Assembly (NCBI GenBank): GCA_027624795.1
Contig: JAQBTX010000001.1
Location: 27,170 to 91,169, forward strand
DNA from: a bacterium
GTDB lineage: Bacteria; Patescibacteriota; Microgenomatia; UBA1406; GWC2-37-13
DNA: 64,000 nucleotides
Direction of reading: 5' to 3'
In this document: positions 6,520-50,985 of the stretch, piece by piece
Numbering within the stretch: the first letter of the stretch is position 1
Layout of the letters: each line of letters begins with the position of its first letter
Translations under genes and position numbers: made by a program
Notes under the pieces: model-generated
The model's input: the letters and a program-made list of their open reading frames with translations, nothing else
What the model was told of the DNA's origin: nothing
The model's database searches: none

Positions 6520-7806
6520 TTACATGGTAAACCGGTCATAGTTTTTCATGACCAGTTGTGAATCAATTTGTTTGAATGTCTCCAAAACAACTGACACTAC
6601 AATGAGTATACCCGTTCCTCCAATAACAAGATTATTTAAGTCGGTAATGAGCGAGACGAGTGCTGGTAGCACTGCAATGAGTCCCAAAAAGACTGCTCCA
6701 AAGGTAGTGATTCGATACACCACGCTTTGCAAATACGCCTTTGTTGCAGAGCCAGGACGAATTCCTGGTATAAATCCTCCATGCTTTTGTATTTCATCAG
6801 ATATTTTTTGAGGGTTAAATACCACAATGGTATAAAAGAAGGTAAATGCTACTACAAGAACAAAGTACGTAGCGTTGTATACAAATCCTGACGGATCGAA
6901 AGAAGTCGCCAGAAATGTCCCGATTCCCGCAAGTGTGGGATTAGGTAAATATCGAGTAAAGTTTCCGATGATTTGCGGAAAAAGCACAAAGGACACAGCA
7001 AAAATGATAGGTATAACTCCGGCTTGATTCAGCTTAAGAGGAAGGTAATTGTTTGCGGCCTGATACATACGATTTCCTTTTATCCGCCGTGCATAATATA
7101 CGGGAATCCTTCGTACTGCCTCGTTTATAAATACAACTGACGCTATAACAAAGATTGCTATAACAATAAAAACCACCATACTTATGGCGACTGTCGAATC
7201 AAATGTACTTATAGTTCTACCGAGTATTACCGGGATGCGCCCTACAATTCCCGCAAATATAATAACAGATATGCCATTTCCCAAACCATTTTCTGTAATA
7301 AGCTCACCTAGCCACATAATGATAAAGGTTCCTGCAAGAAGGGTAAGTACAAAAGAGAAGAACTCAATGGGGCTCAATATATCGATGATTCCTTGATTAC
7401 GAAGTAACATATAGATCCCCACCGCTTGAATAAGCGTAAGTGGTATTGTTAATAATCTGGTGTATTGATTAATTTTTGCTCTGCCTGCTTCACCTTCTTT
7501 AGTTAGTATCTCAAGTTGTGGAATAACCATGGTAATCAACTGTATTATGATTGAGGCATTAATATACGGTGTCAAACCCAAGGCCATAACAGAGAAATTA
7601 ACCAGAGTTCCCCCTGAAAATATATCAAGAAGTGATAAGAATTGACTTGAAGCAAAAAGTGCCTTTAACTGAGCAAGATCAATTGCAGGGACGGGTAAAA
7701 ATGCGAAAATGCGAAACACGAGAATAATTCCAAACGTTACCGCTGTCTTTCTGCGTAAGTTAGGATCTTTGAGGAGTAAGGAAAATTTTTGTAATATATG
7801 GTTCAT
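6520..7806 (-). CDS. secY: Preprotein translocase subunit SecY
   Basis: 428 aa, about 10 TM segments. Motifs GIMPYI-like (LTPYINASIIIQL) and GGFIPGIRPG. Follows rplO. Confidence 0.95.
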   Translation of the reverse strand: MNHILQKFSLLLKDPNLRRKTAVTFGIILVFRIFAFLPVPAIDLAQLKALFASSQFLSLLDIFSGGTLVNFSVMALGLTPYINASIIIQLITMVIPQLEILTKEGEAGRAKINQYTRLLTIPLTLIQAVGIYMLLRNQGIIDILSPIEFFSFVLTLLAGTFIIMWLGELITENGLGNGISVIIFAGIVGRIPVILGRTISTFDSTVAISMVVFIVIAIFVIASVVFINEAVRRIPVYYARRIKGNRMYQAANNYLPLKLNQAGVIPIIFAVSFVLFPQIIGNFTRYLPNPTLAGIGTFLATSFDPSGFVYNATYFVLVVAFTFFYTIVVFNPQKISDEIQKHGGFIPGIRPGSATKAYLQSVVYRITTFGAVFLGLIAVLPALVSLITDLNNLVIGGTGILIVVSVVLETFKQIDSQLVMKNYDRFTM

Positions 7807-16308: not shown

Positions 16309-16336
16309 ATTGTTTATTAAAAAATAAGATTGCTAT

Positions 16337-16471
16337 AAAAAAAAAGAGCCCCAGATTGGGCCCACTATAACAGAGGTTCAATCTGGTTAAATTAGAAACA
16401 GTTTCCTGTTCTTACTAACCATTCATTAATTTACGAAGCTCAATTATATACCATTGTGCCTCAGAGTTCAA
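16337..16471 (-). promoter_or_regulatory. Promoter, roughly 100-nt structured leader and U9 terminator-like element between rpsJ and rplC
   Basis: On the minus strand: TTGAAC (16471-16466), N17, TATAAT (16448-16443). Hairpin with a GAAA loop at 16394-16412. 8-bp stem CCAGATTG/CAATCTGG (16351-58 / 16379-86). Then GGCUC and U9 (16345-16337), 28 nt before the rplC ATG. Confidence 0.55.
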
Positions 16472-16473
16472 CT

Positions 16474-16782
16474 TTACATTTTTACCTCAACCTCTACGCC
16501 AGCTGCAAGTTCCAAATGCATCAAAGAATCAATAGTCTGATTTGTTGGGTTTATTATATCCAAGAGTCTCTTGTGAATAATAAGTCCAAAATGTTCTCGT
16601 GCATCTTTATCGGTAAACGGTGATTTGTTTACTACATATACTTCTTTTCTGGTAGGGAGCGGTATGGGGCCTATTATAGAGGCTCCTGTTTTTATTGCTG
16701 CGTCTACCAGCTTCTGACATGTCTCATCAATAAGACGATGATCATAAGCTTTCATCCGTATTCGTATTCTTCCTTTTGGCAT
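16474..16782 (-). CDS. rpsJ: 30S ribosomal protein S10 (uS10)
   Basis: RIRIRMKAYDHRLIDETCQKLVDAA...GPIPLPTRKEVYVVNKSPFTDKDAREHF. Confidence 0.95.
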   Translation of the reverse strand: MPKGRIRIRMKAYDHRLIDETCQKLVDAAIKTGASIIGPIPLPTRKEVYVVNKSPFTDKDAREHFGLIIHKRLLDIINPTNQTIDSLMHLELAAGVEVEVKM

Positions 16783-29982: not shown

Positions 29983-30018
29983 TAATTATAAAATTATCCC
30001 TCCAGTATAATAAACCTC

Positions 30019-31344
30019 ATGAAATACTTTGTCAAAACTTTCGGGTGTCAGCAAAACGAGGCAGATAGCGAGCGCGTGGCGCAAGCTTTTTCCGCCAGAG
30101 GACTTACCAAAGCGCGCGGTTATCAAGATGCCAACTATGTAATCATAAATACCTGTATGGTTCGCGAATCTGCAGAAAATAGAGTGTATGGATTGGTCAA
30201 TAATTTAAAAGAAATTAAAGCTCAAAAAACAAAAGATGGAGAGCTTTATAAAATCATCGTCACCGGTTGTATGGTGGGAATTGCATTTCGTGATAAATCC
30301 GGAAAGTATCTTACCAAAATTCGAAAAGCCATGCCCGCAGTTGATGAATTTATGCCCATAGAAGAAGTAGGATTTGATATGGAGCCAGTCCGGCAAAATG
30401 ATATACAAGGATGGGTACCCATTTCAAATGGCTGTAATAACTTTTGCACATTTTGTATTGTGCCCTTTACCCGTGGAAGAGAAATTAGTAGACCTTATGA
30501 AGATATCATCGATGAATGCTTGCATTTGAAGGCAAAAGGATACAAAAAAGTTACACTCCTTGGACAGAATGTAAATTCATATGGCGCGGATCTCATAATG
30601 GGAAAAGAAAATGTTCATGTGATGCGAGATATTAAAGATACGTATTTTAAAAAAAGCACCACCCCTCCCGACTCAACGTCGGGAAACCCCACCTTAAAAA
30701 GGAGGGGAGTTAGTGATATAGCTCTCCTCCTTGATAAGGAGGAGTACCCAAAGGGGGAGGTGGTAAATCACCTTTCCACTATCAGATCTAAATTCACCTA
30801 CAACGGCCGTAACGTGGAACCAGTATATGTAAAACATTTGGGCAAACAACGCATTCCTACCTTGTTCCCCTATTTGCTGGAAGATATTGCACGTATGGAT
30901 TTTGAACTGGTAGATTTTGTATCATCAAATCCTTGGGACTTTTCTGATGAACTCATAGATATGATTGCCAAATATCCCAATGTGACACGCACCATTCATC
31001 TTGCCGTGCAATCCGGAGATAATGAAGTGCTCAAGCGAATGAATAGGTGGTATACACGAGAGGAGTATTTAGATATTGTTAATAAACTTAAAGCTCAGGT
31101 TCCCAATGTTAAATTAACAACCGACATCATCGTGGGTTTCTGTGGAGAAACAGATGAAGAATTTCAAAATACGGTAAAACTTGCCAAAGAAGTTGGGTTT
31201 GATAAAGCGTATATATCTCGTTATTCAGAGCGGCCGATGACCGCTGCCACTAAAGTAATGAAGGATGATATTCCGATGCCAGTGAAGAAAAAACGATGGA
31301 AAGAATTAGATAAGATAATCAATACGTTTGCGTATACTTTATGA
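30019..31344 (+). CDS. miaB: MiaB-like radical-SAM methylthiotransferase with a large internal insertion and no TRAM domain
   Basis: N-terminal TFGCQQNEADSE...NTCMVRE. Radical-SAM CNNFCTFC. The ORF ends about 20 aa after ...YSERPMTAA, so the C-terminal TRAM domain is absent. Confidence 0.82.
   Translation: MKYFVKTFGCQQNEADSERVAQAFSARGLTKARGYQDANYVIINTCMVRESAENRVYGLVNNLKEIKAQKTKDGELYKIIVTGCMVGIAFRDKSGKYLTKIRKAMPAVDEFMPIEEVGFDMEPVRQNDIQGWVPISNGCNNFCTFCIVPFTRGREISRPYEDIIDECLHLKAKGYKKVTLLGQNVNSYGADLIMGKENVHVMRDIKDTYFKKSTTPPDSTSGNPTLKRRGVSDIALLLDKEEYPKGEVVNHLSTIRSKFTYNGRNVEPVYVKHLGKQRIPTLFPYLLEDIARMDFELVDFVSSNPWDFSDELIDMIAKYPNVTRTIHLAVQSGDNEVLKRMNRWYTREEYLDIVNKLKAQVPNVKLTTDIIVGFCGETDEEFQNTVKLAKEVGFDKAYISRYSERPMTAATKVMKDDIPMPVKKKRWKELDKIINTFAYTL
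30658..30764 (+). repeat. GC-rich composite palindromic element with terminal inverted repeats, inside miaB
   Basis: ACCACCCCTCCC (30658-69) pairs at 11/12 positions with GGGGGAGGTGGT (30753-64). Internal hairpins: TCCCGAC-tcaac-GTCGGGA (30666-84) and CTCCTCCTT-gat-AAGGAGGAG (30724-44). Confidence 0.7.
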
Positions 31345-38431: not shown

Positions 38432-39544
38432 ATGAAGAAAATTAACTTATCAATAAAAAATACTGTAGTTCCTATCGACTTTAACACTCATTTTAAAAAT
38501 CTCGCACATATTGCTGATTCTTTAAATCATGGCGCATCAAAACATTATAAGAAAATGGGGCTCACCTATGTCGATGTTCCAGAAATTGTTGGGATTACTG
38601 GTGCGTGTGAAAACGTAGACACCCTATTTGTCATACAAAACAGAAATGGCATTCCCCTTTTTTTTGCACAAACTGGGCAACTTTCACTTGAACAGATACT
38701 ACAGACACTACCTGGTGCATATACCGTCATTCATTCTGGTCGCGATGAGGAATATGAGGACGCGCGACATTTACGACAATTTAGACTCACTGAAGAGGAA
38801 TTCGATTGCACTCTCGTAAATATGAATCGAGACAATTATGATGAGGAGAAGATGTTTCAAGCACTGCTCAACCATATACAATGTGCAGTACAGGCAATGA
38901 TCTATGAAGTGATCCAAGACCATCAATCCTTATTGGAAAATACGTATCATAGAGATATAGAAGTCCTACACTACACCTCCTCACATGATTTTCAACAAAT
39001 ATCGTATGGGGATGCAGTTGAACTCCTAAATGATAATGGATTTCCAAAAGTACAATTCGGTGATGATCTAAAATCTGAACATGAAGCATGTGTGATAGAA
39101 GTATTAAACAAAGGAGAAACGGAATTACCAGTGTTTATTACCAAGTATCCAAAAGATATTAAATTTTTTAATATGAAGGTTTCAGAAAAAGATCCACGAG
39201 TGGTTCTTTCTGCTGATCTTATTCTTCCCTATGCCGGAGAAGCCACCGGTTCTGCAGTACGTGAACATGATTTCAAAAAACTTGATGAACGACTCACAAA
39301 TTCTACTATGTTTAAACTCCATACTCAAAGAGGGGGAACCTATGATGATTTTAAATGGTATTTGGATATTATTAAAAGCAAAAAAACCAATCCTCATGCA
39401 GGATATGGCATAGGTAATGAACGGGTACTCCAATATATCTTTGGAGAAAAAGATATTAGAAACGTATCGTTATTTTCACTGTTAAACAATCAAACCGGAG
39501 ATTGGGATAAGTCGAAACAGGGAAATAACAAGTTTGTAAAATAA
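38432..39544 (+). CDS. Class IIb aminoacyl-tRNA-synthetase catalytic-core paralog (AsnRS/AspRS-like) lacking the anticodon-binding domain
   Basis: Motif 2 GRDEEYEDARHLRQFRLTEEEF. YPKDIKFFNM. GEATGSAVRE. Motif 3 PHAGYGIGNERVLQYIFGEKDIRNV. Only about 25 aa precede the motif-1 region, so there is no OB fold. Confidence 0.8.
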   Translation: MKKINLSIKNTVVPIDFNTHFKNLAHIADSLNHGASKHYKKMGLTYVDVPEIVGITGACENVDTLFVIQNRNGIPLFFAQTGQLSLEQILQTLPGAYTVIHSGRDEEYEDARHLRQFRLTEEEFDCTLVNMNRDNYDEEKMFQALLNHIQCAVQAMIYEVIQDHQSLLENTYHRDIEVLHYTSSHDFQQISYGDAVELLNDNGFPKVQFGDDLKSEHEACVIEVLNKGETELPVFITKYPKDIKFFNMKVSEKDPRVVLSADLILPYAGEATGSAVREHDFKKLDERLTNSTMFKLHTQRGGTYDDFKWYLDIIKSKKTNPHAGYGIGNERVLQYIFGEKDIRNVSLFSLLNNQTGDWDKSKQGNNKFVK

Positions 39545-39552
39545 ATATACAG

Positions 39553-39581
39553 TTGCATAAATGTATAATTATGATTATAAT
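39553..39581 (+). promoter_or_regulatory. Consensus sigma70-like promoter of a micro-transcript
   Basis: TTGCAT (39553-58), exactly 17 nt, then TATAAT (39576-81). Confidence 0.6.
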
Positions 39582-39587
39582 ACCAAC

Positions 39588-39714
39588 AATGATCACATTA
39601 CTTACACTCACCAGCATCGTTTCACGACGAACCAACGGGGGAGTAAGTTTTGTGATATAACAATCACAGAAACAAGACAATCCCCTGCCCATAAAACGGC
39701 GGGGGATTTTTTTT
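39588..39714 (+). ncRNA. Roughly 125-nt promoter-to-terminator unit: sRNA, leaderless 23-codon micro-ORF (39589-39660) or attenuator leader
   Basis: ATG lies 7 nt after the -10 box. The ORF is MITLLTLTSIVSRRTNGGVSFVI. Hairpin at 39647-39673, followed by a strong intrinsic terminator. Confidence 0.45.
39680..39714 (+). terminator. Rho-independent terminator
   Basis: ATCCCCTGCC-cataaaac-GGCGGGGGAT forms a 10-bp stem with one G-U pair, followed by a run of 7 T. Confidence 0.8.
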
Positions 39715-39735
39715 GGTTAAAAATTACTAGCACTT

Positions 39736-40254
39736 ATGATAGATATACTAATATCAAGTACGCATAAATCAAAAACGCCAGCACTGGATGCAAACGATAT
39801 TTGGGTGGTTTTAATGGATGATCCGACATTTGCATCAACGTACGAAAGAGAAACTCAAGCTCATAAACCATTTGTAGATGCTCTTCCTGAGCTTTTCAAG
39901 GAAGAGATGAATAAATATGTTGGCGCTGCTCTCCTAATGCAGCTCAGATCCAAATATCTATCCTATTGTCTTCAGAATGATTATGTTGGAACAGTACTTG
40001 GAGGAAGATTTAAGGGTGCCTTTCAAAAAGAATTGGAAAAAGCAACAATACTCTATAGTAGTTCTGCCAGATTTGTTGATGAATCAATAAAAAAACAAAA
40101 TAAAACCGATATCGAATGGTTGATGCACTTTTGTTTAAGTCCAGCATCTCTCACGATGCATTCAGAAGGAATACTTACAGTAAGACAGTTACTTTTGACC
40201 CAACCAATGGCAATCATAAGTACGCCACCTCAAACAGTTTTATCCACGTATTAA
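39736..40254 (+). CDS. Hypothetical protein (172 aa), no recognisable family
   Basis: Uninterrupted ORF ending 5 nt before the GNAT start. No motifs recognised by eye and the start is uncertain. Confidence 0.5.
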   Translation: MIDILISSTHKSKTPALDANDIWVVLMDDPTFASTYERETQAHKPFVDALPELFKEEMNKYVGAALLMQLRSKYLSYCLQNDYVGTVLGGRFKGAFQKELEKATILYSSSARFVDESIKKQNKTDIEWLMHFCLSPASLTMHSEGILTVRQLLLTQPMAIISTPPQTVLSTY

Positions 40255-40259
40255 GTACT

Positions 40260-40865
40260 ATGGAAAATTTATCAACATATATGGTCGAGACTGAACTAAA
40301 TTCACTTATTCTTCTTAAAAACGATGCCTTTACTGCTCGTGTAGCAACAGAGGGCGATACTTTGTGGACAAATACAATAAGTAATTGGATTAGTAATGCG
40401 GGACCCCAGAAAATGATACCTAAAGATATCAGTACTATTGCTAGATACTTTAGAGACCAAGACTCCGTACTTGTTTTTAGTAATGAAGGCCTACTCGTAG
40501 GACATATTGCGTTTACGTATAGATATGGTGTGGGAAATGAACGTGTAGAAATAGGTTCTTTGTGTATCAATCCGGAATTTGGAGGTAAAGGGATAGCGAC
40601 TATGGCAGTTCAAGGCATTATACGCTACGCTGCTTTAACATTTGATGTAGATACAAATATATTTGCTATGTGCAACCAAGAAAGCCTACATATATTTGTT
40701 AATAAAGTAGGAGGGATAATTGTCCCTTGTGAAAAAACAGATAATGAAGTGTACAATCATTGTGAGCTCTGCCCACGTGCAGCAGGTGCGTCGACATCCG
40801 CACCTCCTTGTCGCCATACCCATGTAGACCTTACACGAGTAGTTGCATCGCTTCGAGAGGTATAA
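40260..40865 (+). CDS. GNAT-family N-acetyltransferase with C-terminal Cys/His-rich tail
   Basis: Acetyl-CoA motif A IGSLCINPEFGGKGIATMAVQ. Tail CEKTDNEVYNHCELCPRAAGASTSAPPCRHTH. ATG 40260 chosen; the track start at 40116 overlaps the upstream ORF. Confidence 0.78.
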   Translation: MENLSTYMVETELNSLILLKNDAFTARVATEGDTLWTNTISNWISNAGPQKMIPKDISTIARYFRDQDSVLVFSNEGLLVGHIAFTYRYGVGNERVEIGSLCINPEFGGKGIATMAVQGIIRYAALTFDVDTNIFAMCNQESLHIFVNKVGGIIVPCEKTDNEVYNHCELCPRAAGASTSAPPCRHTHVDLTRVVASLREV

Positions 40866-40892
40866 TGCTTTATTATTTGTTATCATATCACC

Positions 40893-42665
40893 ATGCTGAA
40901 AGACAAAATTCACATCATCATAGCTCAAGCTTTAGAGGAACTCAACCTTCCTTCAGACAAGCTTGCCATTTCTCCGCCCAACAATGAAAATTTTGGAGAT
41001 TATGCCACGAACATAGCCCTTCAACTGGCAAAGAGTGAAAAGAAAAACCCCATGGTACTGGCACAACATATAGTTGATGCAATCAAGACTGGTGATGTGA
41101 TAGAAAAAGCAGAGGTTATGAATCCAGGATTTATAAATATTCATATTGGTAAAAATAAACTGATCGAAAATCTCTCTCAAATTGCTATCAATAAGATTGA
41201 AATTCCTCAAGTAAATAGCGGTAAGAAAATTATTGTAGAATATTCAAATCCCAATATTGCAAAACCATTTACAGTTGGACATCTACGCTCAACTATTATC
41301 GGTGATACTATCGCAAACCTTTTTGAGTCAACTGGGGCGACTATTTACCGCGATAATCATCTTGGCGACTGGGGCACACAGTTTGGGAAATTAATTTATG
41401 CTATAAAAGAGTGGGGAAATGAAGAAGAGATAAAAGGTGCTGAAAACCCCGTTAAGATACTGGTTGAATTATATGTCAAATTTCATACTGAAGCAGAAAA
41501 AAATCCTGATTTAGAAATAGAAGGAAGAAAATGGTTTAAAAAACTGGAGGATGGAGATGAAGAAGTTCGACGGTTATGGAAACAATCGATTGAATGGTCT
41601 TGGACTGAATTCGACAGATTATACAAACAACTTGGTATAAAAACAGAGGATTTTGAAAATAATGGCCGCGGATATGGAGAATCGTATTTTGAAGATAAAA
41701 TGGATCCGATCATAAAAGAGTTAAAAGATAAAAAAATATTACAAGAAAGCAAAGGGGCATGGCTTGTATTTTTCCCCGATGAAAAATTTCCTCCCATGAT
41801 GCTCGTGAAACAAGATGGCGCTACATTGTATGCGACGAGAGATCTCGCGACAGATAAATTCAGATTAAATAAATATGGAAAAGACGTGATCATTATTAAT
41901 GAAGTTGGAGCTGAACAATCATTATATTTTCAACAACTTTATGAAGTAGAAAAAATGGCCGGATGGGTAACGGATGGTCAGCGTATTCATATCAAGCATG
42001 GCATGTTTAGATTTAAAGACTCCAAAATGTCTACAAGGAAAGGGAATACCATATGGCTTGAAGATGTATTGGAAGAAGCCATAAAGAGAGCGCATGAAAT
42101 TGCAATGGAAGTTGGAATAAAAGAACAAGGTGATATATCAATGATTAAGAGTAGTCATATTATTGGGGGAGAATCTAAACGTGAAGAAGTTACATATAAA
42201 ATCGCAATCGGAGCTCTTAAATGGAATGACTTAAAGCGGAGCGCTCATATGGATATTGTTTTTGATTGGGATGAGCTTCTTAATATGCAAGGAAACTCCG
42301 GACCTTATGTTCAATATACCTATGTCCGTTGTAAGTCTGTGTTGGGTAAAGCAGATAATCCTGTCATTCCCGACCCCGATCGGGAATCCAGAGAAATAAA
42401 TGAAGAGGAGTTAAGCTTGATAAGATCACTTTCTAAATATCCCGAAACTATACTTGAATCTACACAGAATTTTGCTCCAAATTACTTGTGTTTATATTTA
42501 TATGACTTGTCACAAAAATATAATCTGTTTTATCAAAAACACAAGATTCTAAAAGCGGAAGACGATGAGATTATACAAATGAGACTTACCATAACGAAAG
42601 CTGTAGCAAATGTGCTCAGTCACGGTCTTACCCTACTGGGAATAGAGACGGTTGAAAAGATGTAA
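40893..42665 (+). CDS. argS: Arginyl-tRNA synthetase
   Basis: 590 aa. NPNIAKPFTVGHLRS (HIGH-like). Class I core. C-terminal DALR anticodon-binding domain (LSLIRSLSKYPE...APNYLCLYLYDL). Confidence 0.93.
   Translation: MLKDKIHIIIAQALEELNLPSDKLAISPPNNENFGDYATNIALQLAKSEKKNPMVLAQHIVDAIKTGDVIEKAEVMNPGFINIHIGKNKLIENLSQIAINKIEIPQVNSGKKIIVEYSNPNIAKPFTVGHLRSTIIGDTIANLFESTGATIYRDNHLGDWGTQFGKLIYAIKEWGNEEEIKGAENPVKILVELYVKFHTEAEKNPDLEIEGRKWFKKLEDGDEEVRRLWKQSIEWSWTEFDRLYKQLGIKTEDFENNGRGYGESYFEDKMDPIIKELKDKKILQESKGAWLVFFPDEKFPPMMLVKQDGATLYATRDLATDKFRLNKYGKDVIIINEVGAEQSLYFQQLYEVEKMAGWVTDGQRIHIKHGMFRFKDSKMSTRKGNTIWLEDVLEEAIKRAHEIAMEVGIKEQGDISMIKSSHIIGGESKREEVTYKIAIGALKWNDLKRSAHMDIVFDWDELLNMQGNSGPYVQYTYVRCKSVLGKADNPVIPDPDRESREINEEELSLIRSLSKYPETILESTQNFAPNYLCLYLYDLSQKYNLFYQKHKILKAEDDEIIQMRLTITKAVANVLSHGLTLLGIETVEKM
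42362..42389 (+). repeat. Hairpin-element copy D (perfect 8-bp stem), in frame in argS
   Basis: TGTCATTCCCGAccccgaTCGGGAATCC: stem ATTCCCGA/TCGGGAAT. Translated as VIPDPDRES in the variable linker before the DALR domain. Confidence 0.75.
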
Positions 42666-49633: not shown

Positions 49634-49701
49634 ACAGCTAATTCTAGCACAAAAAGCCCAAATTACAATGAACAGCTTCTTCTGTTCTTGTATAATAAAC
49701 C

Positions 49702-50985
49702 ATGGCGTTTTTTATATGTTCAAATTGCGGTGAAGGTTCGGCATCTTGGATGGGGAGGTGTCCCAATTGTAGTGAATGGAATACGCTTGTTCAAAAACGT
49801 GAGTCAAAAACTACAAAATCAAAAAAAACTGAAGTATTTGAATCTAAAGCCTTCAAAACAATTGTTGCACTCGATACAAATCGTAATAAAACAGATGTAT
49901 ATGAGCTCGACCGCGTGCTCGGAGGAGGTGTGGTGAAAGGCGAAGTAATCCTTTTAACCGGTGAGCCAGGCGTGGGAAAATCTACGTTGCTTCTTCAAAC
50001 GTTGCATAAACTTACTACCTTGTATATTTCTGGTGAAGAGTCACCCGAACAAATTAAAGATCGGGCAGACCGATTGGCGATTCCGCTTACTACTTTGTCT
50101 TTTTCAGACTCACTCCAAGTTGAAGCCATAGATGCGGGAGTTCGTGACATGAAAACCTTTCCAGACATAATAGTTATTGATTCAATTCAAACGATCTATT
50201 CTAAAGATGTTCCCACTGCTCCCGGCAGCATAACTCAATTGAGGGAAGCAACAGCCAGACTCATACGACTCAGTAAGGAAACCGGCGTTCCCATGATCAT
50301 TGTGGGTCACGTAACCAAAGACGGCGACATCGCAGGGCCCAAATCACTTGAGCATATGGTTGATGCGGTGCTTCATTTTGAAGGGGAAAAAGTTTCAAAT
50401 TATCGCATATTGCGAGCGCAGAAAAACAGATTTGGCTCGACAGACGAGATTGGAATTTTTGAAATGACTCCAAAAGGATTGAAAGAAGTAGATAATCCAA
50501 CCGTATTTTTAGACAAACAAGAAGTTGACGTTCCAGGAAAGTCGATTGCGGGAGTTATGGAGGGGCAGCGTCCGTTATTTTTTGAGATTCAAGCACTTGC
50601 CACTCGATCGTTTTTGGCTGTTCCACGACGCGTTGTGAAGGGATTGGATTATAATAAAATACTTCTCCTTATTGCAGTAATACAAAAGCATCTTAATATT
50701 GATCTGAATACATATGATTTATATTTAAACGTGATCGGTGGGGTTCAAGTTAAATCTCCAGCTGCTGATTTAGCAGTAGTTGCTGCCATTTTATCAACAG
50801 TGAAAGATATTCCATTATCTGCAAGAACCATTTTCACTGGTGAGCTCGGGTTATTGGGGGAGATTCGTAAAGTATATGGCGAAGAAAGGATTGTCCAAGA
50901 AGCAAAAAGACTCAAATTCACCAAACAGTATTATTCTATGGAATGTAAGAGTGTGAAAGAATTGTACAAAAAAATCAGCAATTAA
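49702..50985 (+). CDS. radA: DNA repair protein RadA/Sms
   Basis: Zn finger CSNCGEGSASWMGRCPNCSEW. Walker A GEPGVGKSTL. KNRFG motif. Lon-like C-terminus. Confidence 0.93.
   Translation: MAFFICSNCGEGSASWMGRCPNCSEWNTLVQKRESKTTKSKKTEVFESKAFKTIVALDTNRNKTDVYELDRVLGGGVVKGEVILLTGEPGVGKSTLLLQTLHKLTTLYISGEESPEQIKDRADRLAIPLTTLSFSDSLQVEAIDAGVRDMKTFPDIIVIDSIQTIYSKDVPTAPGSITQLREATARLIRLSKETGVPMIIVGHVTKDGDIAGPKSLEHMVDAVLHFEGEKVSNYRILRAQKNRFGSTDEIGIFEMTPKGLKEVDNPTVFLDKQEVDVPGKSIAGVMEGQRPLFFEIQALATRSFLAVPRRVVKGLDYNKILLLIAVIQKHLNIDLNTYDLYLNVIGGVQVKSPAADLAVVAAILSTVKDIPLSARTIFTGELGLLGEIRKVYGEERIVQEAKRLKFTKQYYSMECKSVKELYKKISN

Follow-up and report, generated by a model that had tools for sequence, protein, structure and literature searches.

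Leader-peptide transcription attenuators are represented in enterobacteria by trpL-trp and pheM-pheST, the latter acting on aminoacyl-tRNA synthetase (aaRS) genes. We know of no leader-peptide attenuator of the terminator type for arginine. Searches of the literature turned up neither a leader-peptide attenuator of argS or argH nor any account of leaderless regulation in the candidate phyla radiation (CPR). The 64,000-nt stretch analysed here (contig JAQBTX010000001.1, hereafter the window) belongs to a Microgenomates-like CPR bacterium of groundwater. At 39553–39714 it contains a predicted transcription unit upstream of argS, which the original prediction read as an Arg-sensing attenuator, a stand-alone small RNA (sRNA) or a hydrophobic micropeptide. 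This unit is very probably genuine, under selection, and linked in cis to arginine-related genes as their leader. Our favoured reading, with a probability of about 0.6, is a leaderless Arg leader-peptide transcription attenuator that is operated by the ribosome.

As in trpL and pheM, a short open reading frame (ORF) close to the promoter carries tandem cognate codons (two in trpL and two here), overlapping pairings of the types 1:2, 2:3 and 3:4 are present, a G+C-rich terminator with a U-run precedes the structural genes, and the downstream genes make or charge the amino acid that would be sensed. Unlike those systems, the leader would sense arginine, belongs to a CPR lineage and has an ORF that starts at the first base, with neither a 5′ untranslated region (UTR) nor a Shine–Dalgarno (SD) sequence. 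It had no sequence or Rfam similarity to them (Thr_leader scored 22 bits, against a threshold of 55). Attenuation by leaderless short ORFs that are rich in Cys has been described in mycobacteria (Canestrari et al., bioRxiv 10.1101/834739). There, too, the short ORF with a 5′ AUG is the first cistron, and a pause at the sensed codons remodels the RNA and switches on metabolism genes; however, the mycobacterial ORFs act on translation and contain Cys tracts, whereas the leader described here has an intrinsic terminator and two Arg codons. In Salmonella, orf34 (SpeFL), the leader of speF, senses arginine by ribosome pausing at two consecutive Arg codons at positions 12–13 (PMC6386406). The tandem Arg codons of the window leader are at positions 13–14, but orf34 has an SD sequence and a 31-nt 5′ UTR, acts on a polyamine gene through Rho-dependent termination and RNase G decay, and is not homologous to the window leader. 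T-box leaders likewise respond to uncharged tRNA with antitermination, and their regulons combine an aaRS gene with a biosynthetic gene. A T-box riboswitch (RF00230) was rejected for the leader, which had no Rfam match, lacks a Stem I, a specifier and a T-box sequence, carries no UGGN ahead of the T-run, and measures approximately 125 nt rather than 200–300 nt. The closest known systems are trpL and pheM-pheST in mechanism, the mycobacterial Cys short ORFs in initiation mode and orf34/speF in the sensed codons.

The leader region comprised the following features:

39553–39581, + strand: promoter with −35 hexamer TTGCAT (39553–39558), 17-nt spacer and −10 hexamer TATAAT (39576–39581), from sequence reading and conservation
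39589–39660, + strand: putative leaderless leader ORF of 23 codons, MITLLTLTSIVSRRTNGGVSFVI, with stop codon TAA at 39658–39660, from sequence reading and homologues
39625–39630, + strand: tandem Arg codons CGA CGA (codons 13–14), the proposed sensing site, invariant in 3/3 full-length homologues
39592–39656, + strand: P1, a 65-nt imperfect hairpin and putative anti-antiterminator (predicted fold, −22.5 kcal/mol, z = −4.8)
39648–39656 with 39663–39671, + strand: helix B, a small hairpin, TTTTGTGAT / ATCACAGAA, from sequence reading
39636–39642 with 39681–39687, + strand: helix A, CGGGGGA with TCCCCTG, including one G-U pair, from sequence reading
39636–39687, + strand: predicted antiterminator, helix A enclosing helix B (−20.3 kcal/mol, z = −5.0)
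39679–39714, + strand: predicted intrinsic terminator with an 11-bp stem, AATCCCCTGCC (39679–39689) / GGCGGGGGATT (39698–39708), an 8-nt loop and T8 (39707–39714)
39715–39735, + strand: A/U-rich junction of 21 nt with no conserved promoter, kept at 21–22 nt in homologues

Homologues were sought in public genomes and metagenomes with the pattern ATCACAGAA, gap, ATCCCC, gap, GGGGATTTTTT. The scan gave 13 matches, three of which contained the whole element (L007, L012 and L015). The remaining matches were rejected as unrelated terminators preceded by ATCACAGAA, and scans of viral contigs for the leader were empty or spurious. The leader of L012, from Candidatus Roizmanbacteria, had the same sequence as that of L015. 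Full-length comparisons were based on the window, L007 and L015, and a further contig, L003, contributed a 3′ fragment only. L007 (CAYVKV010000004.1) is labelled 'uncultured Gammaproteobacteria' but shares its gene order and 77% ligase identity with the CPR window, and this contig is probably mis-binned or mislabelled.

In L015, the leader followed a Na/H exchanger gene and a miniature inverted-repeat transposable element (MITE) and preceded argH (TIGR00838, 336 bits against a cutoff of 279.5) and argS, which overlapped the argH stop; genes for a LytR_C protein and RecJ were located further on. The gene order in L007 was GT2, PEGA/SH3, ligase, leader and argH, with an argH product 92% identical in amino acids to that of L015. 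The 874-bp contig L003 read ...ATCACAGAA-N7-AATCCCCCC...GGGGGATTTTTTTTT, followed after 22 nt by the ATG of a GNAT gene, and ended in the start of argS. The product of this GNAT gene (82–717), P0123, was the only homologue of the window GNAT (43% identity). As originally predicted for the window, the terminator ended 21 nt before the next ORF (T8 end at 39714, ATG at 39736) and the downstream genes ran into argS. The distance from the T-run to the next ATG was also 21 nt in L007 and L015 and was 22 nt in L003, despite the different next gene. Thus, in four lineages the leader was located 21–22 nt 5′ of arginine-related genes, the first of which was argH in two. The upstream neighbour varied, being the ligase in the window and L007 and the Na/H exchanger with the MITE in L015. 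The element therefore travels with the arginine genes downstream and not with its upstream neighbours. BLAST of the element, run on the window and on every retrieved locus, detected it once at each and revealed no repeat family.

Over the first 84 nt of the predicted transcript, the window shared 90–92% identity with L007/L015. For comparison at that evolutionary distance, identity was 73% (nucleotides) for the ligase gene, and 43% and 58% (amino acids) for ArgRS and RecJ, respectively. Within the ORF, 4–7 of 72 positions differed, with no indels; the ATG, frame, length, TAA and CGA CGA were invariant in the window, L007 and L015. Conservation set in exactly at the ATG. The 7 nt before it differed in sequence (ACCAACA, GACCCAC and AGCAACC) and were constant in number. 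In two variant contigs from metagenome runs X18 and X24, similarity to L015 also began at the ATG, with TATAAT and 7 nt ahead of it, and one of the two carried AACACAGAA. The inner stem and loop of the terminator differed among the window, L015 and L003, and the hairpin still folded in each homologue. The expectation that the micro-ORF and pairing segments would be maintained in relatives was therefore borne out in L007 and L015, and L003 shows the 3′ part of the element.

The promoter, the ATG 7 nt behind its −10 box and the 23-codon ORF with tandem CGA codons had all been predicted, and each was found at its coordinates. Both promoter hexamers and their 17-nt spacing were kept in the relatives, with varying spacer bases and a −35 hexamer of TTGTAT in L007 and TTGCAT in L015. 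This promoter was missing from the consensus-scan list because TTGCAT matches TTGACA at just 3/6 positions. The ATG (39589–39591) lay exactly 7 nt past the −10 box, i.e. at the predicted 5′ end of the transcript, and this gap was invariant in the homologues. The ORF listing of the window also gave a TTG-extended form of the leader ORF. Among long ORFs, CGA was the most frequent Arg codon in the window. A different frame contains a 68-codon ORF (39561–39767), which crosses the leader and the terminator and was rejected as non-coding, because a 2-nt indel in the L015 terminator would disrupt its frame.

To place the leaderless layout in context, the 46 ORFs of at least 200 aa in the window were tallied for a −10-like box, defined as a match of at least 5/6 to TATAAT located 4–9 nt before the first ATG. 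Such a box preceded 14 of them, compared with a genome-wide expectation of 4.5%. The gaps peaked at 5–7 nt (4, 4 and 3 ORFs), against approximately 0.8 per position farther upstream, and an SD-like motif, even a lax one, was present at only 8 of the 46. One gene start, TATAAT-AAACCTC-ATG at 30019, had the same layout as the leader ORF. Examples of the leaderless type in the window, this one included, lie at 30001–30021, 49684–49704, 34007 and 40878–40895. Judged from these sequence patterns, the use of leaderless mRNAs appears to be widespread in this genome, and a leaderless leader ORF is credible because bona fide genes of the window share its −10-to-ATG layout.

The 129-nt leader RNA had a predicted folding energy of −45.4 kcal/mol (z = −6.4), which was equalled by 0/200 shuffles. 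Its dominant structure, overlooked in the original prediction, was P1, in which the 5′ half of the ORF pairs with GGGGGAG, GUAAGU and UGUGAU, enclosing most of the 23 codons. In L007 and L015, P1 reached further and paired the AUG too. The small hairpin that had been placed at 39647–39673 was recovered as helix B, and its 3′ arm was retained in L003 as well. The complementarity between CGGGGGA and TCCCCTG, suggested earlier as a possible antiterminator, was present with one G-U pair and became the predicted fold in 3/3 homologues once the 5′ arm was masked. The resulting antiterminator captures the 5′ arm of the terminator by pairing GGGGGA with UCCCCU (helix A) around UUUUGUGAU with AUCACAGAA (helix B). 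The terminator (−20.2 kcal/mol, z = −4.0) had the strong GC stem and T-run that had been claimed, with 7 of 11 stem pairs being G-C, but the stem spans 11 bp at 39679–39708 instead of 10 bp at 39680–39707. Scanned over 60 kb of the window, terminator-like sites were otherwise only as frequent as in shuffled sequence, and this terminator was by far the strongest.

P1, the antiterminator and the terminator are mutually exclusive and of near-equal energy, each with z ≤ −4 and with 0/200 shuffles as stable. Across the predicted folds, 92–97% of alignment cells were paired, compared with 36–57% in slid registers; values of 98% for P1 and 92% for the antiterminator (41–57% in slid registers) were also obtained. 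One-sided changes that retained pairing, a weak though consistent comparative signal, occurred at six pairs, two in P1 (G-U to G-C and U-A to U-G), one in the terminator and three in the antiterminator. G-U to G-C changes were located at 3-68, 49-98, 62-81 and 98-115. A ribosome footprint that puts the first CGA in the A site leaves the RNA free beyond approximately nt 47–50. For the window, L007 and L015 alike, free folding of the nascent RNA then favoured the antiterminator (−14 to −20 kcal/mol). Moving the footprint to the stop codon, located in the loop of helix B, made the terminator optimal instead.

The unit thus contains a promoter-near ORF with an initiation signal, Arg codons and an intrinsic terminator before the first gene, as leader-peptide attenuators do; mutually exclusive pairings that favour the antiterminator at the stall are predicted. 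In the proposed mechanism, transcription would begin approximately 7 nt past TATAAT, yielding an RNA whose 5′ end is the AUG, and a 70S ribosome would load on this 5′-terminal AUG with RNA polymerase still on the leader. If no ribosome loads, P1, being transcribed first, would sequester GGGGGA and UGUGAU (plus the AUG in L007 and L015), and the terminator would form. If Arg-tRNA(Arg) is abundant, the ribosome would reach the UAA in the helix B loop and cover helix B, and the terminator would again form. If Arg-tRNA(Arg) is scarce, a ribosome stalled with CGA CGA at the A site would hold the 5′ arm of P1 and leave the RNA free from that same position onward. Then UUUUGUGAU could pair with AUCACAGAA, and GGGGGA with UCCCCU of the terminator 5′ arm, resulting in antitermination. 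Read-through would extend into argH-argS in the relatives and into the gene for the 172-aa protein, the GNAT gene and argS in the window. The neighbouring features in the window were:

38432–39544: class II AsnRS-core/AsnA-like ligase of 370 aa, directly upstream of the leader (protein-family searches)
39736–40254, + strand: all-helical 172-aa protein of unassigned family, the first downstream gene, with ATG at 39736 (ORF listing and structure model)
40260–40865, + strand: GNAT acetyltransferase of 201 aa with a C-terminal CxxC...CxH motif (family search)
40878–40892, + strand: likely extended −10 promoter of the leaderless type belonging to argS itself, TGT-TATCAT-ATCACC, immediately before the ATG (conserved motif)
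40893–42665, + strand: argS, arginine--tRNA ligase of 590 aa (TIGR00456, 465 bits)

The ligase had no anticodon-binding domain and, unlike most of its CPR homologues (approximately 497 aa), no N-terminal MGS-like domain (PF02142). Its homologues derive from Microgenomates/Patescibacteria metagenomes, and four others among them (P0047, P0061, P0067 and P0083) were not syntenic and not beside argS. No other terminator follows the ligase gene before 39679, so its transcripts probably also end at the leader terminator. The 172-aa protein had 37 remote homologues (approximately 165 aa) in a representative library, the best with 51% identity, and no Pfam or NCBIfam match. Its AlphaFold model was all-helical, with a predicted local distance difference test (pLDDT) score of 89, and had no fold analogue in the PDB at E ≤ 0.001. 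PDB sequence matches of the GNAT were generic only, and both proteins were near-orphans in a word-indexed protein database. The window GNAT shares its CxxC...CxH motif with P0123, and a GNAT stands behind the Arg leader in two lineages (the window and L003), the place taken by argH in the other relatives. Past argS, on the opposite strand, were genes for a LytR_C protein and RecJ.

The comparative evidence (linkage, ORF features and the antiterminator) favours the Arg attenuator that had been predicted, with the amendments that P1 must serve as anti-antiterminator and that argS has its own promoter. The latter was one of several points that weigh against the attenuator. The 15-nt motif TGnTATCATATCA(C/A)C-ATG was kept before argS in L001 (6782–6796), L003 (823–837) and L015 (3703–3717, inside the coding end of argH), and by its sequence it is likely an extended −10 leaderless promoter. 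Consequently, argS would not depend solely on read-through from the leader, and the attenuator would control mainly the gene or genes between the leader and argS. The closest syntenic contig, L001 (ligase 78% identical in amino acids), has no leader; there, the ligase gene leads to argS via a 201-nt spacer with a MITE-like inverted repeat in place of the leader. Arg accounts for just 2 of the 23 leader codons, a pair expected by chance in approximately 3–4% of controls; with the ATG fixed at nt 1, approximately 4% of shuffles yielded an ORF of 15–35 codons containing RR. The ORF had no coding signature, with 7 of 8 nucleotide changes being non-synonymous and the peptide substitutions being mostly non-conservative (T6K, I10T, G18E, F21S and I23A). 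Conservation was also stronger than a simple attenuator would require, with the unpaired apical segment GUUUCACGACGAACCAAC invariant despite having no alternative partner, which could hint at a bound factor. The stall geometry is borderline, as a footprint edge of +15 at the second CGA leaves too little of GGGGGA free. The RNAalifold fold was broken in L015 at three pairs (17-55, 29-42 and 30-41), and two of the L015 changes disrupt its apical stem; an alternative apical hairpin, GUUU/GAAC with CACGAC in its loop, tolerates these changes and is one pair longer in L015. The full-length sequences number three, from approximately two independent lineages, and among the three aligned sequences 0 pairs had changed on both sides. 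The folds therefore rest on thermodynamics and conservation. Finally, a search for RNA sequencing runs with the leader sequence found none.

The MITE-like element itself occurred at 6598–6760 in L001 and at 1973–2159 in L015, with terminal inverted repeats GTAAGAGTTCAC(A)CTCTT(C)TTGACA. In L015, the MITE (190 nt) abuts the leader promoter and separates the leader from the upstream gene. It appears to be multi-copy, because in groundwater metagenomes its ends were covered to very high depth and joined to many different flanking sequences.

Excess conservation, the non-synonymous changes, the L015 breaks and the lack of a leader in L001 are the reasons why a leader that binds a factor stays a serious rival. 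Here, P1 or its apical loop would bind ArgRS, tRNA-Arg or free arginine, and the element would be a cis attenuator not read by the ribosome, with an incidental ORF. The linkage and the three folds fit this explanation equally well, and a near-invariant 5′ region of 72 nt that includes an unpaired apical segment is more typical of ligand- or protein-binding RNA. The alternative apical hairpin would moreover display CACGAC, a loop that includes a CGA codon as well as the ACG anticodon of the major tRNA-Arg in bacteria. On the other hand, no T-box or other Rfam match was obtained even at E ≤ 10, the transcript has no UGG with which the NCCA end of a tRNA could pair, and 125 nt is small for a tRNA-binding leader. 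In a genome with leaderless initiation, this explanation would also have to treat as coincidence that an ATG opens the transcript, that its frame is fixed, that the stop codon falls in the helix B loop and that two Arg codons stand in tandem. On balance, we consider factor binding unlikely. In a bolder form of the idea, the 5′ hairpin would be a new riboswitch class of the arginine system, binding arginine, tRNA-Arg or ArgRS through an apical loop that shows CGA/ACG, and the ORF would again be incidental. To our knowledge, no natural arginine-sensing or non-T-box tRNA-sensing leader of such a kind has been described, and this form is distinctly doubtful.

A stand-alone, trans-acting sRNA of approximately 125 nt, pairing with target mRNAs through a single-stranded AUCACAGAA region, would account for the promoter, the strong terminator, the stable 5′ hairpin and the high sequence conservation, and in the minimum-free-energy fold a conserved stretch between the hairpins is indeed partly single-stranded. 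However, the fixed junction argues against this second reading of the original prediction: in four lineages the element always lay 21–22 nt before an arginine-related gene, with no conserved promoter between, and it moved with the downstream genes and not with the upstream ones. Within the leader, AUCACAGAA also has a conserved partner in competition with P1, and the element is present in a single copy per locus. We therefore regard an sRNA as improbable. A functional hydrophobic micropeptide (a membrane peptide, a type I toxin, or a substrate or partner of the ligase or GNAT) would fit the retention of the ORF in three homologues and the hydrophobic N-terminal half of the window peptide. Yet the hydrophobic run is only approximately 11 residues long, the mostly non-synonymous, non-conservative substitutions also fall in the hydrophobic half, and no antisense promoter or RNA was evident in the promoter scan. 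A partnership with the ligase or GNAT found no support, as the element occurs without the ligase in L015 and without the GNAT in L007 and L015. A functional micropeptide is accordingly very improbable. Scarcely credible, finally, is a mere terminator and 3′ UTR of the upstream ligase gene, with a promoter-like sequence and an ORF that arose by chance. The absence of another ligase terminator before 39679 is in its favour, but the element follows a different gene in L015, with the 190-nt MITE between, both hexamers of the promoter are conserved, as is their distance from the ATG, and L001, the closest ligase orthologue context, has no element.

Known RNA classes were also searched for. Rfam gave no match at gathering thresholds in the whole window and only sub-threshold noise at E ≤ 10 in 39400–39850, and ARAGORN found no tRNA or tmRNA genes. 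Signal recognition particle (SRP)/4.5S RNA was rejected because it had no Rfam match, and a GNAT toxin–antitoxin cassette was rejected because no supporting evidence for it was found.

A second candidate leader was observed elsewhere in the window, in the gap of approximately 165 nt between rpsJ (S10) and rplC (L3) on the minus strand (16309–16475). This gap contained a promoter-like TTGAAC-17-TATAAT (16471–16443) and a terminator, GGGCCCAATCTGGGGCTC followed by T9 (16363–16346), located approximately 30 nt before the rplC ATG and among the few other canonical terminators in the window. It had no Rfam match and may be a ribosomal-protein attenuator.

The mechanism proposed for the Arg leader is ordinary in principle but would be new for arginine and for the CPR. 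If confirmed, it would be, as far as we found, the first leader-peptide attenuator of the terminator type keyed to arginine, and among the first cis-regulatory RNAs proposed for the CPR. If the reading is true, the tiny uncultured cells of this group would couple transcription to translation, would start translation on 5′-terminal AUGs as a rule, and would monitor the charging of Arg-tRNA to control argH, which encodes the last step of arginine synthesis, together with neighbouring genes. The helical 172-aa protein and the GNAT with its zinc motif would then gain an arginine-linked role.

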